A stretch of DNA of 34,867 nt from Stramenopiles sp. TOSAG23-3 (taxonomy: Eukaryota), in NCBI GenBank assembly GCA_900128585.1, contig LT642201.1, forward strand, positions 1-34,867. Reading direction: 5' to 3'. Below, piece by piece: positions 2,799 through 15,659 of this stretch. The stretch's first letter is position 1. Each line of letters begins with the position of its first letter. A model generated the notes under the pieces. The model was not told where the DNA came from. It worked only from the letters and a program-made list of their open reading frames with translations, and did not search any database. Both the position numbers and the translations under genes were made by a program.

Positions 2799-5700
2799 TC
2801 ATCGTGTGTATGATGATGCGTATGCATATTCCTCCACCAGCTCCCACGTCTCACCGTTTTTCTCCCCGCACTCGTTTTTCTCACCCCCCCCACCGTGGTA
2901 ACACAAAAACGTTTTGTAAGTGTACAGACCAGAAGAGGCATTCTTTGCATGCCGGCCTTTGAAACCGAAGTATACTGTTGAACAGCGCATTTGGCCATAG
3001 TCGCAATACCCATTACTGCATTTCCCATCTATGTGATTCGTCAAATTGTGAAGCTGAAATTCGCTGGTTGTTGCTGGAATTGTAAGGATACCGCTAATGT
3101 TCAAGTAACCCCGCGGAACCGGTCCTGAAATGCCGGTACCGTGCAAAAATACGCACTTGATGGGCATTTCCCTTGTGCTTGGAATTGCAGGGAATGTCCC
3201 ATTCAACCCAGAATTCCAGTGCAAAAGGAGGGTAACAAGTTTTGCGTTTCGGGCGAACAGGTCATAAGGAAGATGCCCTGATAGAGAATTCTGGTACACA
3301 CTTATTTCTTCTAAGGTACGGCTGGTAAAAGCATCAATTGCGCCATGCAGACCGGCTTTATACATGTAAAACTTCGTCAGATAGGGAAACACACTGCTCG
3401 CAAGCGACGGCATCGCATAATTCGACGTGGGGGAAAAATTTATCAGCACCAAAATATCTAATGTGGAATTGGTAACCTTTTCAAACGGTATCAACCCGAA
3501 GGTTTTCCCGTTGAAATCAATTTTAAGATACTTGTAATCCCAAAAATACGTTGGCCAGTTCCACTGAAAATGTTGCACGCTGGTTTTAAGCAAAGTAAGC
3601 ACTCTAAAATTTGAAAAACAGAGGGGGATGCTTGCAATAGCATTCATGCTTAGCTCATCAATGACAAGATACGATAACTTCGTAAGTCCGCAAAATAAGG
3701 AAAACGTTAAATTTTTCCAATCGTACCGTTTGTACATGTGCAAATTTACTACCGAGTTTTGAACGGCTGGCATTTGCAGCAACCGTTGGGGAACATTTCT
3801 ACCATTGCTCTGCGCGCTCAGCGAGAGCACAGTAACCTTAATTTGACCAGTAATTCGGACGTCTAGATCCGGGCGGTACTCGATGTATCCCGCAACGACT
3901 GAATCAATTAATTCAAGTTTCTCGTTCTCGCCCAAATCTAAAATTTTCAATCGTGGCCACCGCATGTACGGCTCCAAAAGAAAATTTCCACCGCTTCTGC
4001 TGCTGCTATTTACGCCAAACAGGTTAGAAATTTTTGTTTTGGAAACGTTTAAAATTTCTAGATTTGGAAACATGTCTAAAATCTGAAAGACTATCATACC
4101 ACCATCTCTCGAGTCTTTTTCAAAATTACAACCGCTAAAATCTAGAACTTTCATTTCACTGGTGGGAAAATTATTTTTGACAAACACGAAAATTGCCGTT
4201 TTCAATTTCTGCCCTGCAAGGTCTGTCAAAGAAAGATGGTCTACAATAGGGTTCCCGTGAAAACGTACCCGTCCACTCAATTCAACAATTTCGTTTGGCA
4301 ACCCATCTGGGGAAATTATGTTATGCGCCAAATCAAGCCTGGATAGTTTTGCAAACTTCCCTATGCAGGGCGCGATTGAATCGATAGAATTTCCCGACAC
4401 ATTCAACACCTCCAGATACTCGTAAAAGTGATCACACAGAATCTTCTGTGGAAATTCCCCCGTGATGCTGTAGTATGATAAGTCTAACTCCCTGGATACG
4501 GGATTGTTTTGGAATGTCATGCGTTCTACATTCTTCAAATAGAGAAAGGATTTTGGAAGGGTTGCGATTGCATGGTCGTTTACGTGCAGTTCTTTCAACA
4601 ATGTGCAGTTTCCTATTTGTTTGGGCAGGGCACTCATTTTCTTGCTCCACCTTTGATGTCCAGCGCTATCAACGAAATCCGCGTTTATAGTCTCGATATA
4701 AGCGTACCCGCACGAGGGCACATAAGGATTGCCGGAATTCTTGAACATGCGCTTTGGTGAAGCGGACTGCCACAAGTTTTCGCCAAACTCGCCTGCGCAC
4801 CTTTTGTATTCTACCATCAAGGGAACAGCAATTATACCAACCCACACAGCCCCAACGAGGGACAACATCATTCCCGCACGAGCTTCTATTTTGTCAAACC
4901 GGTTGCGTAGTTTAATCAAGCACTGGATCGGTTTACTTTCAAGGCTGTTCTTCACCTTGAGTATGTTTAAAGAAATGCCGTGCAAAGATTTCTTTTGTTT
5001 CCCTTTGAGTATCACGACTTGGTGTATGGATCGCATTTTTAACGTTATGGATATAATCGGCCATGCAATAGCTAAATTTACGAAAGGCCTTGTTTCTACT
5101 TCGGTCCTCGTCTCCCCGCCTCTCCATAAATTGATTCCGAAGTACATCATATCCATCAACCCATCCACAGTGTACACCATCATTTTGCTGAACTCTCTGT
5201 TGTACCGTTTTCGCATCATCATAACTGCAGGAGAAATGATAATGTTGAAAAACATTAGTGTCAGGTAGAGAAAAACATACTGGTGGTTCGCGGTAGTACA
5301 GACGTCATAAAAGCAAAGAACTTGCAAAACGATTTCGAACAGTTCCATGGCGACTTGCTTTACAAAGAAATACTTTCCATACCTTAGCCCAAACATAGAA
5401 CGGTAAAAGGTGTAAAGCTGATAAAATTGCTCGCAAGTGCGCTTTGTTTTTCCGTCTGTGTTTTTATTACCAGCCAACTTTTTTATCCGGAAAGTTAGTC
5501 CACGAACTATACTCGAAACCTGTATGACAGTGAGCACAAATGCAAACATGGACACCCCGTAAAACACCATGATTGAAACGTACCCAGCGCTCCTATTGGC
5601 TGGTGCCTCTTGCTTCAACAGTAACTCCTGGCTTACCGCGTGCAGGGCACCACTAAAAAGCACCGCCGAACAGACAAACGCAGTAATGGACAGATGAACT

Positions 5701-7076
5701 TTATCTTTTCTGCTTAGTTGGGTAAACGGTACCACCCCCACAGTTTTATTTTTGCGGGTGTCCAAACCAGCAACGTAACGTATTCTGCACACCGCAAATC
5801 CTGCACTAAGGCTGGCCAAGACGATCAAATACCAGAACACAAAACCATCAATGCTGACCTGTCCTTTTTTGGCCGCGGCAGCGTCCCTCCCGAGTTCGTC
5901 TACCTCCGTTACGTACGATTTAATACTTTGTTTGGAGCAATGTGATGTGTGGTCTTCCAGCCCTTGCGATGGTGTGACCTTAAACTGTGGCACATCAATA
6001 CACTGTGGGGTTTCAACCGACCGGCATTCGTTCTTTAAAACGGTTCGGTACTCTCTCTCTGCAAGATTAATCATCTCTGCTATTAAATCAAACATGTCGT
6101 CTAACGAAGCTACATTTTGCGATTTCCTAACCTGTTCTACCCCCGGTTTAAATAAGTTGTGCAACGTGTTGCTGTTGTCGTTTATGTTCCTTATCATGTC
6201 AAAGTACAACTCGATTTTGGATTGGGTCTTTCTTGGGCATAGTTTGTGAAACTTCGTGCATCGATCTTTGCAAACAGGAATGGGATTGCACTTGGAATTG
6301 CACGTTGAGAAAATGGTAGCACAAGACATGTCAAATAAGAAATCGAAGCACTCGGCGTCTTCACTGCTATATGTTAATCTCATTTGAGTCGTTATCGTTG
6401 TATACATATAATCGTACACTGCAAGGGTTTCTAGTCTATTCAAGCCTTTCAGACTAACATCAAATGATAGGTGGGATATTGCAGCACCCTTCGGACCAAG
6501 CGCCTTCATGCAGTTGGATCCCCATTCCCTATTGGCCGTTATCACGGTGCAGTTGTCAGTATCAATGTGTGGCACCAGGACTTCGGCCTGGCTAGCCTGG
6601 TTGGGCAGGCTATCTGTTGGCAAATGGTTGAATACCAAGAGAAAAATGTATATAGGCAGTCCAAAAAATGTGGGGATGACTGGAAACCTGCTTTTCCTGA
6701 AACCTTTGCTCTCTTCGTACATGTTTACCACTTGCATGTTTACAAATGACCACCCCGCGACGCCGAATATGAGCCCAAGCGCTATCTTTCCAAGAACGGT
6801 GCCTGTCTGTTTGAAGACCACCAAAGTCACCACCACAGGAAGGGCACTAATGAAAATTGCTGCCAACGCCGTCGCCTGTTTACACTTAACCCCAAGCACT
6901 TCGTTAAAGTAAGACAACCGGTTTCCCCGACCTGTTCGTTTCGCCCCGCGGGATTCCCGAACCTCCTTGCTTACATACAGAGGGTTATGGAACACCTGGC
7001 CTCTCAAACCGTTACCATCCGTTCCCGCCATCGTCTTTGGCCCGTGGTGCGCCGTGTCTTCGGGAGCGACATCCAT
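2799..7076 (-). CDS. Large multi-pass membrane protein: N-terminal TMs, Frizzled-like cysteine-rich domain, multi-TM core, long C-terminal LRR region
   Basis: Open frame of about 1425 aa from ATG 7076 (MDVAPED); the ORF-track start at 7178 is a TTG in AT-rich sequence. About 10-12 hydrophobic segments. Cys block CFDFLFDMSCATIFSTCNSKCNPIPVCKDRCTKFHKLC. LRRs such as LPKQIGNCTLLKELHVNDHAIATLP, LEVLNVSGNSI, LSRLDLAHN and NSLSGHLP. Confidence 0.8.
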   Translation of the reverse strand: MDVAPEDTAHHGPKTMAGTDGNGLRGQVFHNPLYVSKEVRESRGAKRTGRGNRLSYFNEVLGVKCKQATALAAIFISALPVVVTLVVFKQTGTVLGKIALGLIFGVAGWSFVNMQVVNMYEESKGFRKSRFPVIPTFFGLPIYIFLLVFNHLPTDSLPNQASQAEVLVPHIDTDNCTVITANREWGSNCMKALGPKGAAISHLSFDVSLKGLNRLETLAVYDYMYTTITTQMRLTYSSEDAECFDFLFDMSCATIFSTCNSKCNPIPVCKDRCTKFHKLCPRKTQSKIELYFDMIRNINDNSNTLHNLFKPGVEQVRKSQNVASLDDMFDLIAEMINLAEREYRTVLKNECRSVETPQCIDVPQFKVTPSQGLEDHTSHCSKQSIKSYVTEVDELGRDAAAAKKGQVSIDGFVFWYLIVLASLSAGFAVCRIRYVAGLDTRKNKTVGVVPFTQLSRKDKVHLSITAFVCSAVLFSGALHAVSQELLLKQEAPANRSAGYVSIMVFYGVSMFAFVLTVIQVSSIVRGLTFRIKKLAGNKNTDGKTKRTCEQFYQLYTFYRSMFGLRYGKYFFVKQVAMELFEIVLQVLCFYDVCTTANHQYVFLYLTLMFFNIIISPAVMMMRKRYNREFSKMMVYTVDGLMDMMYFGINLWRGGETRTEVETRPFVNLAIAWPIISITLKMRSIHQVVILKGKQKKSLHGISLNILKVKNSLESKPIQCLIKLRNRFDKIEARAGMMLSLVGAVWVGIIAVPLMVEYKRCAGEFGENLWQSASPKRMFKNSGNPYVPSCGYAYIETINADFVDSAGHQRWSKKMSALPKQIGNCTLLKELHVNDHAIATLPKSFLYLKNVERMTFQNNPVSRELDLSYYSITGEFPQKILCDHFYEYLEVLNVSGNSIDSIAPCIGKFAKLSRLDLAHNIISPDGLPNEIVELSGRVRFHGNPIVDHLSLTDLAGQKLKTAIFVFVKNNFPTSEMKVLDFSGCNFEKDSRDGGMIVFQILDMFPNLEILNVSKTKISNLFGVNSSSRSGGNFLLEPYMRWPRLKILDLGENEKLELIDSVVAGYIEYRPDLDVRITGQIKVTVLSLSAQSNGRNVPQRLLQMPAVQNSVVNLHMYKRYDWKNLTFSLFCGLTKLSYLVIDELSMNAIASIPLCFSNFRVLTLLKTSVQHFQWNWPTYFWDYKYLKIDFNGKTFGLIPFEKVTNSTLDILVLINFSPTSNYAMPSLASSVFPYLTKFYMYKAGLHGAIDAFTSRTLEEISVYQNSLSGHLPYDLFARNAKLVTLLLHWNSGLNGTFPAIPSTREMPIKCVFLHGTGISGPVPRGYLNISGILTIPATTSEFQLHNLTNHIDGKCSNGYCDYGQMRCSTVYFGFKGRHAKNASSGLYTYKTFLCYHGGGGEKNECGEKNGETWELVEEYAYASSYTR

Positions 7077-7751: not shown

Positions 7752-9179
7752 ATGTCCAACAAACTAACAAACGAGGCGTTGAAAATTATTTCGGACGCTC
7801 ACGCGGCGGACAAGCGTGGGGATTTGAAGCGGTCTAAGGAACTGTACGCAAAGGGCCTTCCCATTCTGGGGAAAGCGATACGGTTCGAAAAATTAGAACA
7901 AACGAAGAAGCAGTTGACCGAGTTCCTGCACTCAAAATTGGAACGTGCAGAAGAAATTGCAAAGCAGCTGAGGGAGGGGCCAGCGGGCGATTCCAGCAAG
8001 AAACCTAGCCCCTCCGACTCCGAAAAGAAGAAGGCCGACGGGAAAGGGAAGGAAGAGTCAAAAAAAGGCGAGGAAGGCGAAGAGAAGGAAGAGGAGTTGG
8101 ACCCGGAAATGCAAAAGCTGCAAAAGGGGCTGGCCGGGGCCATCTTGGGGACCAAGCCGGACGTCAAGTGGGACGACGTCGCGGGGCTGGAAGGGGCCAA
8201 GTCGGCGTTGAAAGAAGCGGTGATCCTGCCCGCAAAGTTCCCACAACTGTTTACGGGCACGCGCAGGCCGTGGAAAGGGATCCTCCTGTACGGCCCGCCG
8301 GGAACGGGGAAGTCGTACCTTGCCAAGGCGGTCGCCACGGAAGCGGAGTCCACGTTTTTCAGCGTCAGTTCGTCGGATTTGGTGTCGAAATGGCAAGGGG
8401 AGAGCGAAAAGCTGGTGAAGAATTTGTTCGAAATGGCCCGAAAGCGGAAACCGGCCATTTTGTTTATAGACGAAATAGATTCACTGTGCGGCGCACGGGG
8501 GGAAGGGGAGAGCGAGAGCTCCCGGCGCATCAAGACAGAGTTTTTAGTGCAGATGCAGGGCGTCGGCCACTCGCACGACGGTATTTTGGTGCTCGGGGCT
8601 ACCAATACCCCGTGGAGCCTGGACCCCGCCATGCGGAGACGTTTCGAGAAAAGGATATACATCGCGCTGCCCGAGGAGGAGGCAAGGGCGCGAATGTTTA
8701 AGATACACATGGGGGATACAAAGTGCAACCTGGGCGACAACGAATACGACCGGTTGGGCATCATGGCGCACGGGTACAGTGGGTCAGACATTAGCGTGAC
8801 GGTCCGGGAGGCCTTGATGCAACCGTTGCGCGAGTGCCAGAATGCCAAGTTCTTCCGCCCCGATAGAGACGGGATGTTGACCCCAGAACTGCGCTACCCC
8901 CCCTGCTCTGCGTGCCCGATGGTGCTTGATTCTCGGCAACTGGACGACTGGGACAGTGCCAAAGGGACGAACTCCCCGAGCAGCCGCCAGTGCAAAAAGT
9001 GCGGCTGCATTCGCATCGACTTGATGGACGACCACATGGAGCCCGAAAAGTTGTTGTGCCCCATAGTTACCTTTAACCATTTCCAACAGGTACTGAGCCG
9101 GGGCGGTGGGGCAACCGTAAGCCCAGGGGAATTGACACGCTTTGAACAGTGGACCCAGGAATTCGGCCAGGAAGGTTGA
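7752..9179 (+). CDS. VPS4: Vacuolar protein sorting 4 AAA+ ATPase (MIT + AAA + Vps4_C)
   Basis: N-terminal MIT helices, [13 protein letters not shown], Walker A GPPGTGKS, pore loop [11 protein letters not shown], Walker [19 protein letters not shown] and the terminal FGQEG hallmark. Confidence 0.97.
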
Positions 9180-10514: not shown

Positions 10515-12647
10515 TTAAGAACAATCCATGCCATCAAAATTGCACGAGATCGAATTACACGCCGCGTCGCACTCTTTGTCGTTCAAGTACTGAGGCGATG
10601 GACAGTACCTACTGCATATTGGTTTACAAGATGGTAGATTGATCGTACCGCTTGAACACCCATGATTACCTGATAAATATAGCTCAAGACCAACTGTGTT
10701 TTGTTGCCGAGCAATGAAATCAGCCATTGTCTGGGATATGTTTGTCAAATTATTATCTCGTGCATCCATATATTGTAAAACAGAAAATGCTGTCAACATT
10801 TCGGGCAACGCGGTGAGTCCTAACCTTGCTATACCCAAATTTCGTAAAGATAGATTCATCCTATTAAATCCGTCCGGCAACTTTCCAACTTCACGCAACT
10901 CGTTTCCATCTATAAAGAGAGAACCAACCTGTGGCAATTCCTCTGCACCTAGTCTACTTGGCAACAAACGGCTGTTGTTGACCAAATTCAAATAGAACAA
11001 GTTTGGTAAAAACATACCCCCTTCTTTATTTGGTAATTGCAGTCCAACGTTTCTGTTTACACGAAGGCTCACTAACGTTTCATGCCTCCACAAATTTGGG
11101 TGCACATTTGTTATATTATTGAAACCAATCCGTAAGTCGATCAATTTGTGCCACTTTTCCACATCAACGTCGAATGTTTTCAACCGATTGAACGACAGGT
11201 CAAAGTATGTCATTTTGTTCAATCTTTCCATGTCCCTTGGAAGTTCCTTCAACGGGCCACTTCGCAAAACTACTTTTCTCAACCCCTCCAGTTGAACGAA
11301 GTCCTTGGGCAGGCTGCGTATGGGATGGTCCTTCAGTTCAAACACAGCACAGTTGCATGTAGGCGTCAACAAATTGGTGCAGAAAGGAATTTTTACTTGG
11401 CACCCCCGAGAAAAGAAATCTTTGGGGGCGGGATGCGATTCTAAAGTCGTATTCGAGGTGTTACTGTGCACGTCTCTGGGGCCTTCGCACTCTCGGTTGA
11501 CATAGCACTCGCATTTGTTCTCAAGCTGCCAAACCGACGCGACTTGTACAATTCCAATAACCAACAGCACACATACATACATCAAACTAAGCGAGAACAC
11601 GCCCAGTTTCGCCCACCTAGGAAAATATTTGTCTTGTATTCTCTCCACTTGCTCTGTACGCGAATTTCCAAAAATACTTACGCGCCGACGTTTAAACCGC
11701 TCAGACAGTTCCGTTTCAATTTCCATCGCGATCTGGTCTGCGTGATCCTCAACGGTCTCGTTTACCATCTTTCGCAGCTTGCCAAGTAAGGACATGGAAG
11801 GGAATAAAACAATGAGAATGTTTTCTTCTATTGTTAAAGGCACCACATATAAGTAAGTGATCAATAATGGAAAAATCAAAAAGATCATATCAACAACAAT
11901 GTCTACGGTGATTTGCAGGTCCCGATTCCGCTTCGAAACGGATTTCCCTCCCCACAAGTATCCAACCATACTGTATGCCCGGTAGGACGACTCTGCAATC
12001 AAAACTGCCATCAATACTAGACAAACCCAGTGCGGTAATGAACACAAGTATATGGTCGCCATGTTGTACGCGGACATGTAGTTTTCCATGAATTCAAACG
12101 CGTGCAACCTCCAAAGATAGAACTTTCCGTTCAACCCAAGCGTGTTCAGGTACTTGTAGTATGCATTGACCACTACGGATTTTCGTGCTGATTTCTGGAT
12201 TGCTGTGCGCATGCCATTGACGTTGTTGTAAAACTTAATGGCGGCTTTCTTCCACTGGCACGGTAAAATGGCATTGACAAAAATGATCAGAAATAAACAA
12301 GCAAGCACTAGGAACACCCATACAAAATCTCTGTTCCAACGAACGAACGGTCGGAACCCGTTGTGAGTGTATCCAAACAGCAGTCCAACGTGCAACCCTG
12401 CTACGATCAGCAATAAAGTCAAATAAACTACCCCTCGGCACCCAAACAATTTTCGACAGCTAATCCGTTTTTTAAATTCCGCAGACGCCGAAGACATAGT
12501 GTTTGGAGCTTCCCCTTCCTCACTACTATCAGTACTACTATCATCGTCTGCATCAGGGGCCACTATCATTGGATTCGCGGTGGTATCCATCAAATCATCA
12601 CCCCCCTCGATTTCCAACGCCTTCATGGTGGTCGTATTTTTTGCCAT
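10515..12647 (-). CDS. Multi-pass (about 6-7 TM) membrane protein with C-terminal LRRs and a terminal LNR (Lin12/Notch)-like repeat
   Basis: Acidic N-tail, hydrophobic segments and LRRs (LKELPRDMERLNKMTYFDLSFNRL, LQYMDARDNNL). C-terminus is CPSPQYLNDKECDAACNSISCNFDGMDCS. Confidence 0.85.
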   Translation of the reverse strand: MAKNTTTMKALEIEGGDDLMDTTANPMIVAPDADDDSSTDSSEEGEAPNTMSSASAEFKKRISCRKLFGCRGVVYLTLLLIVAGLHVGLLFGYTHNGFRPFVRWNRDFVWVFLVLACLFLIIFVNAILPCQWKKAAIKFYNNVNGMRTAIQKSARKSVVVNAYYKYLNTLGLNGKFYLWRLHAFEFMENYMSAYNMATIYLCSLPHWVCLVLMAVLIAESSYRAYSMVGYLWGGKSVSKRNRDLQITVDIVVDMIFLIFPLLITYLYVVPLTIEENILIVLFPSMSLLGKLRKMVNETVEDHADQIAMEIETELSERFKRRRVSIFGNSRTEQVERIQDKYFPRWAKLGVFSLSLMYVCVLLVIGIVQVASVWQLENKCECYVNRECEGPRDVHSNTSNTTLESHPAPKDFFSRGCQVKIPFCTNLLTPTCNCAVFELKDHPIRSLPKDFVQLEGLRKVVLRSGPLKELPRDMERLNKMTYFDLSFNRLKTFDVDVEKWHKLIDLRIGFNNITNVHPNLWRHETLVSLRVNRNVGLQLPNKEGGMFLPNLFYLNLVNNSRLLPSRLGAEELPQVGSLFIDGNELREVGKLPDGFNRMNLSLRNLGIARLGLTALPEMLTAFSVLQYMDARDNNLTNISQTMADFIARQQNTVGLELYLSGNHGCSSGTINLPSCKPICSRYCPSPQYLNDKECDAACNSISCNFDGMDCS

Positions 12648-14279: not shown

Positions 14280-15416
14280 TCAGTTCAGCCCCCCTGTCAT
14301 CGAAGTTCTCACGCCGATGTCGGACGATCCGAGCAAGTCATCGATGTTCAGTTTGAGACCGCCGCCGATCTCTTGGTCTCCAACACCAGGCGGCATGAGC
14401 GATTCCCGCCCAATGTACTCGTCCCCGCTCCAGCTGGATGTCCGCCGTGCGGCAGACGACGTCCCGCTCGGGAACAAGTGCCGAATCAATATTACCACCG
14501 ACCACATGGGAACAAAAGTGTCTAGTATGTACATGAGTATGGAGCCCAGCATTTGTGGAAGGGCCTGCTCGATCGTTTGCGTTTCGACAATTTCACTTGT
14601 CCAGCGGGCGCAAAGGCCCTGCGATTCAATGCCCCCCCTCGAGTACAAAGAGAATGCGAGCGTGGTATACACGGAGACGGAATAGATCACTGCGATCACC
14701 CAGACCTGCTTCGTTTTCCTACGCCTATAGTCTTCCGAAACCACCATTTCCTGCAGCTTCTTAACGATGCCGCACGACGCAAACAGGCTGAACGTGACCA
14801 GTACCGATTCCAAAATACTGAATATGATCCATGTGTTGTCGTGGCAGTTCAGTATAACCGACCCACTCGTCGGTACCGTGCTCGTCCGGTTCCCCGCCGC
14901 TTGGCTGCTTCCGCCCTGTGCAAATGTCCCCAAGGCCCCCAACACGTACACCACAAAAATAGCGGTCACAACGACACCAAAAACAGGGACCACGAACCGC
15001 CTGACGTACTCGGCCTTCTCATATATGCGGCACCATATGGACGCCAGCACGAAAGCCACCGTGATGGAGACGTAACCTTCTAACATTTCGACCGCCGCGT
15101 AGAGCCTCGGGTCCCCATTGATAGTCTTTACGACGAGAAAAAGGATGCAGCTCACGACCGTCAGGTAGTATATAAGGCGTGTCGTTTTCGACCCGTCCAC
15201 GATGATGTGTGACCTGCAGAGCAGCAAAAGGGAGACGAGCGTTCCCACGGCCATAAGGGTCAAAATCATCGACAAAATACACCCCCAAAGAAAACACTTT
15301 TCGGCACCAGAGTCTCCATTTGCATACGGAAAGATACAATAGTACAAAGGAAAAGCAACCGACAAACGGGACTTTCCGTCCCCTATGGCCGAGCAGGTTC
15401 CCGTAGTGGAAGCCAT
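14280..15416 (-). CDS. Seven-transmembrane protein, possibly GPR137/TOM1-THH1-like
   Basis: ATG at 15416 (MASTTG). Seven hydrophobic helices, a basic loop RRRKTKQ between TM5 and TM6, a Pro in TM7 (DTFVPMW) and a Ser-rich C-tail. Family assignment is tentative. Confidence 0.7.
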   Translation of the reverse strand: MASTTGTCSAIGDGKSRLSVAFPLYYCIFPYANGDSGAEKCFLWGCILSMILTLMAVGTLVSLLLLCRSHIIVDGSKTTRLIYYLTVVSCILFLVVKTINGDPRLYAAVEMLEGYVSITVAFVLASIWCRIYEKAEYVRRFVVPVFGVVVTAIFVVYVLGALGTFAQGGSSQAAGNRTSTVPTSGSVILNCHDNTWIIFSILESVLVTFSLFASCGIVKKLQEMVVSEDYRRRKTKQVWVIAVIYSVSVYTTLAFSLYSRGGIESQGLCARWTSEIVETQTIEQALPQMLGSILMYILDTFVPMWSVVILIRHLFPSGTSSAARRTSSWSGDEYIGRESLMPPGVGDQEIGGGLKLNIDDLLGSSDIGVRTSMTGGLN

Positions 15417-15659
15417 ACGTCGTTCTAAAACCCAACCCAACTACTATACACGTTCGTTTCGGAAGAAGACTGTTTTGCTCTTTTCTATCAGTCTATCCTA
15501 CCTTCCTTGTTTAATATGTCTTCTTTGAAAAACTGAACCTAAACGTTCGTTTCGTATTCCTTTACCATTGTTTATTTTGATATCATTGTCAACAAATAAA
15601 ATAGACCGACGACTACTAAAATTTAGTAATTTTTTATTATCGAGTTGGTTGAACGTTGA

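Follow-up and report, generated by a model that had tools for sequence, protein, structure and literature searches.

A Fz-type cysteine-rich domain in a predicted outer loop of an orphan TM-LRR protein family of Stramenopiles sp. TOSAG23-3

What does a Frizzled (Fz)-type cysteine-rich domain (CRD) do in a loop of a multipass membrane protein that ends in leucine-rich repeats (LRRs)? An earlier note on 34,867 nucleotides of contig LT642201.1 (hereafter the window) placed such a domain at 5930-6560 and proposed that it may sense a lipid or sterol. The window consists of eukaryotic DNA with few introns and belongs to an assembly of 28.4 Mb in 7,088 contigs. All motifs quoted in the note lie in one stop-free frame of the minus strand, within a single ORF (Table 1). 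Residues of its product (P0001) are numbered as the count from ATG 7076 plus one.

Near-identical full-length proteins in other assemblies show that the gene is no assembly chimera. Its 90% cluster had 11 members; JGI and ENA assemblies contributed four other full-length proteins among these, 1,423-1,439 aa long. The near-identical proteins differed from the reference by 2-3 changes in 221 CRD residues, none at a cysteine, and allelic variation this small does not point to rapid diversification within the species. Parts of the gene's DNA were found in 20 of 24 runs among the matches listed; apart from two rows that may be the source itself, these runs were, where labelled, marine or seawater metagenomes. 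RNA contigs fell inside the ORF in all four RNA runs examined. They were short, two lay on the CRD, and DNA carry-over is possible. None in these four runs spanned the whole gene, and one lay outside the ORF, at 2358-2554.

Table 1 Features of the CRD-TM-LRR gene and of its CRD-less neighbour, in window coordinates.
Feature	Coordinates	Strand	Residues	Description and evidence
ORF	2799..7076	-		intronless, 1,425 aa: 3TM + Fz-type CRD + 8TM + LRRs; ATG 7076, stop 2799
TM1-3	6627..6869	-	71-151	N-terminus predicted cytosolic; hydropathy, charge bias, present in 8 paralogues
Fz-type CRD, 12-Cys subtype	5925..6557	-	175-385	canonical C1-C10 plus C264/C381; pattern, profile, model
Three-helix insert between C8 and C9	6027..6236	-	282-351	70 residues; site of the ROR alpha5 insert; modelled
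TM4	5784..5846	-	412-432	predicted to return the chain to the cytosol; low model confidence
Seven-TM core, TM5-11	4809..5705	-	459-757	common with the TM-LRR(-LNR) family; hhalign 98.6%, pLDDT 84.7, tree
Four-helix segment, TM7-10	5022..5369	-		conserved polar E579, E582, Q586, N612, D639, D643 and P674
Two-cysteine cap between TM11 and LRRs	4710..4799	-	C761, C790	C761 in 60/60 rows with a residue there
LRR region	3090..4643	-	about 813-1330	second half like plant receptor ectodomain LRRs; Pfam
Cys-rich C-terminal tail	2868..3020	-		5 Cys
Neighbour, CRD-less TM-LRR member	10515..12647	-		7TM core + LRR + LNR, 710 aa

By its cysteine pattern and its modelled fold, the loop is a real Fz-type CRD with the four-helix Fz fold. 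The interval 5930-6560 corresponds to residues 174-384, among which there are 12 cysteines (177, 190, 244, 253, 260, 264, 270, 274, 281, 352, 360 and 381). Ten of them match the ten-cysteine FZ-CRD pattern in ECOD, C*C*CX8CX6C*CX3CX6,7C*C*C (accessible part of PMC4256011), with spacings of 12, 53, 8, 6, 9 (3+1+5), 3, 6, 70 and 7. Shuffling the loop 200,000 times gave a six-cysteine core pattern four times. The Pfam check recommended in the earlier note failed: Fz (PF01392) stayed below its gathering score (E 8e-4, 20.3 against 32.1 bits; residues 238-286). The shortfall reflects limited sensitivity towards a domain carrying a long insert, and not a defect of structure. The same profile matched 5 of 10 CRD-family rows (best E 2e-6), and the paralogue on contig C3558 scored 31 bits. 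A profile of the CRD family gave 14 matches at E ≤ 10 against PDB sequences; ROR2 or Frizzled accounted for 11 of these, and no match was significant alone (best 0.071). A single-sequence PDB search with the loop returned one chance match only. In the Atlas, the loop's look-alikes were Fz clusters, whose scores of 0.81-0.84, being below 0.9, count as a lead only.

The fold match carries the assignment, as Pfam alone was sub-threshold. The CRD was modelled with AlphaFold2 from 10 sequences, without templates (pLDDT 71). Foldseek with this model gave nothing at E ≤ 0.001 and ranked ROR2 and MuSK top. A wide structural search against 48,161 chains gave four chains with Z ≥ 5, all of them ROR2 (Z 7.7, rmsd 3.6, 128 aligned), Nrk (6.5) or MuSK (6.4 and 5.8), values which, being under 8, may reflect a common arrangement. 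The top unrelated chain had 4.6, and NPC1/NPC1L1 chains were at 3.7-4.2. In a second look at 231 chains, rows 1-18 were all Fz-type CRDs; those of Frizzled and Smoothened reached Z 4-4.9, and FAM155A had 2.1. Because the structural and profile tests draw on the same model and the same alignment, they are not fully independent. The earlier claim of a Fz-type CRD with at least ten cysteines was thus borne out by the ten-cysteine pattern, the shuffles and the exclusive presence of ROR2, Nrk and MuSK at Z ≥ 5. Frizzled and Smoothened, the families that the note had named for comparison, scored below ROR2, Nrk and MuSK.

The paralogues add an indication from cysteine loss. Disulfides of Fz-CRDs are C1-C5, C2-C4, C3-C8, C6-C10 and C7-C9 (PMC4256011, accessible part). 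Among the 10 family rows, C4 was missing in four, the same four that lacked C2, and C6 in two, the same two that lacked C10. The two rows lacking C6 and C10 are sisters, with two extra cysteines beside C1. The paired loss fits the C2-C4 and C6-C10 bonds, at a count of few independent events.

The two cysteines outside the canonical ten mark a subtype. C264 was present in 10/10 rows and C381 in 9/10, the tenth being a fragment, and the two are probably bonded to each other. Between C8 and C9 the CRD-family rows carry an insert of 58-79 residues, with three helices in the model. Hydrophobic positions kept in it among the paralogues are 306, 309, 310, 314, 329, 332, 333 and 337. Paralogue CRDs were 14-22% identical to the reference CRD. 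Against a relative from outside the genome, the insert was the most variable part (16/67 identical, vs. 21/38 in C3-C8). The CRDs of ROR2 (9fse), Drosophila Nrk (7me4) and MuSK (3hkl, 9lgg; Z 5.8-7.7 for all three proteins) resemble the protist CRD in the ten-cysteine pattern, in the four-helix core and in having additional helical segments between C8 and C9. It differs from them in the length of its insert, the extra cysteine pair, an identity of only 12-19% and its setting in the TM3-TM4 loop of a multipass protein that lacks Kringle, Ig and kinase domains.

Homologues of the FZ-CRD occur widely among eukaryotes (PMC4256011, accessible part), and the source genome holds several more. The 8-6-3-5 spacing with an insert of 44-56 residues recurred in five ORFs without a multipass core: L011, L035:683-2125 (-), L047:1953-4026 (+), L048:2536-3525 (+) and L049. 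The insert had only 27 residues in one partial ORF among them, and two of the five had a signal-like start. Tandem copies of the 12-Cys subtype were found on contig C6023 and probably on C6677, with low-complexity repeats close by. Six further Fz-like ORFs had ordinary spacing. Small signal-peptide proteins with an ordinary Fz-like CRD were encoded at L012:131-847, L013:352-1026, L008:1282-1962 and L010:1348-2217, two of them with a hydrophobic end. On contig C2430, L016:175-2034 (-) encoded a fusion of a Fz-like CRD and a NIPA transporter, and the same contig carried a Fz-like single-pass protein (L014). The premise that Fz CRDs normally precede a 7TM was too strong: they also occur on kinases, secreted proteins and FAM155/Mid1, as well as stand-alone and NIPA-fused in this genome. 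Outside the source genome relatives of the loop were rare, with three matches in 1.84 billion representatives; the outside relatives included a 1,364-aa protein with identical layout and 32% identity. Word-index searches returned only the protein's own cluster. Pattern scans of metagenome and viral contigs with a three-sequence alignment gave no relative, and the pattern scan with P0003 gave one partial locus.

Hydropathy gave nine clear membrane segments, with TM9 and TM10 below threshold. The TM model (64 sequences, pLDDT 84.7, pTM 0.81) adds two helices to these nine, giving 11 TMs in all, three before the CRD and eight after it. With TM ends placed by hand, the net charges over nine family rows were +1.2, -0.6, +1.4, +0.3 (CRD loop), +3.9, -0.7, +2.8, +0.2, +1.0, +0.5, +3.6 and -0.5 (LRR side). 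Charge thus alternates over the 12 loops, being low at the CRD and on the LRR side and +1.4 to +3.9 in the loops that flank them. From this alternation the N-terminus is predicted to lie inside, and the CRD and the LRRs on the same outer (extracellular or lumenal) side. Sequon density did not tell the two sides apart and gave no help with the topology. The later LRRs matched plant receptor ectodomains (PEPR1, E 9e-12; BRI1, E 3e-6), and the first LRRs matched SHOC2 and Leptospira LRRs. Hydropathy, Pfam and the LRR matches confirmed the layout described earlier, with about three TMs before the CRD and LRRs at the protein end. The proposed outer location of the CRD, with the LRRs as a second outer module, is supported as a prediction by charge bias and LRR matches. 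Features that the earlier note had overlooked are the conserved C264/C381 pair, the helical insert of 70 residues and the presence of eight TMs after the CRD.

Pfam detected no cytosolic enzyme domain in the 1,425-aa protein, and the cytosolic loops are short. A duplication of the TM core as the origin of TM1-3 was not detectable (profile comparison 0.15%). A homodimer prediction scored 0.00, with the alignment unused and the fold uncertain. The five-cysteine tail aligned weakly with the LNR end of the neighbouring protein (6/17, not significant).

The TM core of the CRD branch matched 12 places in the genome (14 candidates). The 3TM-CRD-8TM order was found in eight of the 12; three were cut by contig ends, and C3143 was left out upstream. 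Two of the eight CRD copies were frame-broken: L005 near 175-220, at a T run before the LRRs, and L007 near 3869-3900, where about 40 codons are gone between TM6 and TM7. Either break may reflect an assembly error or a pseudogene. The CRD-less neighbour belongs to a family with at least 56 places in the genome (57 candidates). BLAST found no link between its TM region and those of the CRD branch. Profiles linked both, with 30/30 ORFs tested matching and hhalign at 98.6% (E 1e-15). The unit common to both groups is TM5-11, a cysteine cap and LRRs, and its core carries the family motif G..E-x2-E-x3-Q..D-x3-D..P, together with the cap and the predicted outer LRRs. CRD-less members differ from the CRD branch in having no TM1-4, no CRD and many fewer LRRs; LNR forms the end of the neighbour. 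Other genes of the window were a VPS4-like AAA ATPase at 7752-9179 (+), with MIT, AAA and Vps4_C domains and a cysteine-containing insert ahead of the C-terminal domain, and a 386-aa ORF at 14280-15440 (-), which has several hydrophobic stretches and matched nothing in Pfam at E ≤ 1.

The TM-core alignment has polar residues conserved within the membrane: E579 (58/60), E582 (53/60), Q586 (49/60), N/E/D612 (57/61), D639 (57/63) and D/E643 (61/63), besides P674 (60/63). A tree was built from 60 of the 64 rows, excluding short fragments and rooted by midpoint only. The 11 CRD-family rows made up one side of a branch with 100/100 support, and on this tree the CRD-bearing branch is one clade. On the simplest reading, a module consisting of TM1-3, the CRD and TM4 was gained a single time.

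As judged from profiles and model, the TM core is an orphan family with no assigned fold. It had no Pfam match, no family being common to more than three of the 64 rows, and its Atlas look-alikes included no usable match. Foldseek with the TM model gave nothing at E ≤ 0.001 against PDB and viral libraries. The TM7-10 model reached Z 8.4-9.0, in a tie among DHHC enzymes, pannexin-2, XKR9 and designed bundles. Four-helix units of XKR scramblases, pannexin/LRRC8 and DHHC bundles superpose on TM7-10 at Z 7.5-9.0, scores that tie with designed helical bundles. XKR9 had Z 8.5 (rmsd 4.2, 129 aligned) and XKR4 Z 7.5 against the TM model, likewise tied with unrelated bundles. XKR proteins also have acidic residues in two helices, and the core motifs are reminiscent of XKR helices, perhaps permuted in order, which is a lead only. 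Profiles did not support an XK-related scramblase: the locus was not among the seven PF09815 matches of the genome, and hhalign gave 0.1-0.2%, whole or in halves, for a small profile of low power. Half-XKR membrane domains followed by repeats like RI-type LRRs were seen at L111, L112 and L114. LRRC8 also joins TMs and LRRs, but its repeats are cytosolic, whereas the protist LRRs are predicted outside.

We consider that the best overall explanation is an orphan two-sensor surface receptor with output through the acidic helix bundle, to which we give a probability of about 0.5. Its architecture is very likely and a receptor role is probable; output through the acidic bundle is tentative. An older seven-TM protein with outer LRRs would have gained, once, an N-terminal four-TM module with a Fz-type CRD in its outer loop. 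The protein would act at the cell surface (or an endomembrane) as an orphan receptor, whose CRD and LRRs may jointly recognise an outside ligand. This ligand would most likely be a protein or a surface structure, for example one on prey, on a virus or on a partner cell, and paralogues varying both modules would vary in specificity. Output would most likely run via the acidic TM7-10 bundle, by cation binding or a gated ion or lipid path, because neither a cytosolic enzyme domain nor a GPCR fold was found. We infer the ion path from the conserved residues alone, because the only matches of the TM model were generic four-helix bundles (the tie at Z 8-9). FAM155A, with its MuSK-like CRD lobe over the NALCN ion channel, is a precedent (PMC7672056, accessible part).

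Lipid or sterol sensing by the CRD is unproven. One possibility is that the CRD controls the TM core through an exchangeable lipid ligand, which, as in NPC1, might occupy a deep pocket with the insert as its wall; we regard this as unlikely, and any exchangeable lipid signal as rather unlikely. Many Fz-like CRDs bind hydrophobic ligands, in a groove in Fz8 and Smoothened, while NPC1-type CRDs bury them by means of protrusions from the core (PMC3809587, accessible part). The insert also keeps its eight hydrophobic positions across paralogues, and NPC1/NPC1L1 chains were among the structural matches. These positions may, however, reflect helix packing only, and the low identity of the paralogue CRDs does not suggest one conserved pocket. 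Smoothened and Frizzled scored lower than ROR2 and MuSK, which were top in the second look and have no groove, in ROR2 because an inserted helix, at the same position as the insert here, blocks it (accessible part of PMC11219042). The insert of the protist CRD is longer still. Nrk, the second-best structural match, does hold a fatty acid, buried, probably non-exchanging and judged a cofactor (bioRxiv 10.1101/2021.04.29.442059, accessible part); its site, too, corresponds to that of the insert. The helical insert could thus wall a pocket or plug one. For this CRD, a buried lipid cofactor as in Nrk, or no lipid as in ROR2 and MuSK, is more likely than a lipid signal.

A new protist class of ligand-gated receptor-channels or receptor-scramblases, in which the acidic TM7-10 bundle would be a cation or lipid path, gated in this clade by coincidence of a lipid read by a pocket-type CRD and a protein read by the LRRs, for example in prey recognition, appears improbable. 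Decidedly improbable is a CRD that binds no outside signal and sits on an ion or lipid transporter as a structural lid or for its trafficking, in the manner of FAM155A/Mid1 with NALCN/Cch1. The FAM155A precedent, the NIPA fusion in the same genome and the conserved acidic residues of the core speak for it. At least 56 family members, however, work without a CRD, FAM155A itself reached only Z 2.1, and the 12-Cys subtype also occurs in apparently secreted proteins, some of them tandem, which suits a binding module. FAM155A/NALF1, Mid1, NPC1 (Z about 4.2) and the Fz-NIPA fusions do share a Fz-like CRD above a membrane transport protein, but have other TM folds, and none has LRRs.

An adhesion or prey-capture protein, with the TMs as an anchor only and no signalling output, would agree with the presence of two large binding modules outside, with the shortness of the cytosolic loops and with the lack of an enzyme domain. 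Eleven TMs and near-invariant membrane charges over 60 divergent rows exceed the needs of an anchor, and we consider it very improbable. Hardly credible is a divergent Frizzled/Smoothened-type GPCR with TM4-10 as its 7TM and extra helices at both ends: before TM11 the seven helices after the CRD do run in Frizzled's out-to-in order, but the homologous unit is TM5-11, the core has no Pfam family, the locus is absent from the genome's four PF01534 matches, hhalign against these ORFs gave 0.1-0.6%, and no listed fold-search row spans the seven helices of a GPCR. By these profile comparisons the core is non-Frizzled, as the earlier note had held. The four PF01534 matches are other loci (L116-L119), 7TM ORFs above the Pfam cut-off in which no CRD was seen; they resemble cAMP-receptor-type GPCRs. 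The protist protein shares with Frizzled and Smoothened a Fz-type CRD outside a multi-helix membrane domain. It differs from the class F signature, a signal peptide and a CRD directly before the 7TM, as it has no signal peptide, three TMs precede the CRD and eight follow it, and the C-terminus consists of predicted outer LRRs.

In the literature, no description of a fusion of a Fz CRD with a TM-LRR protein was found, most subscription journals being beyond the scope of the search. The fusion is absent from the accessible parts of PMC12716839 and PMC3019232, and a term search in PMC8163842 gave no mention. The domain is known, and the architecture is undescribed in the literature searched. Wnt was not found in the genome, which is incomplete, and the search control was also silent.

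Outside animals, Fz-type CRDs have been recognised as mobile modules, and the domain alone is therefore no surprise. What is new is the setting, a CRD grafted in a predicted outer loop onto an orphan seven-helix/LRR family. Within one genome there are family members with and without the CRD, besides apparently secreted proteins of the 12-Cys subtype. This set makes it testable what Fz CRDs bind where no Wnt is detected, and how a receptor-like family may signal across the membrane.
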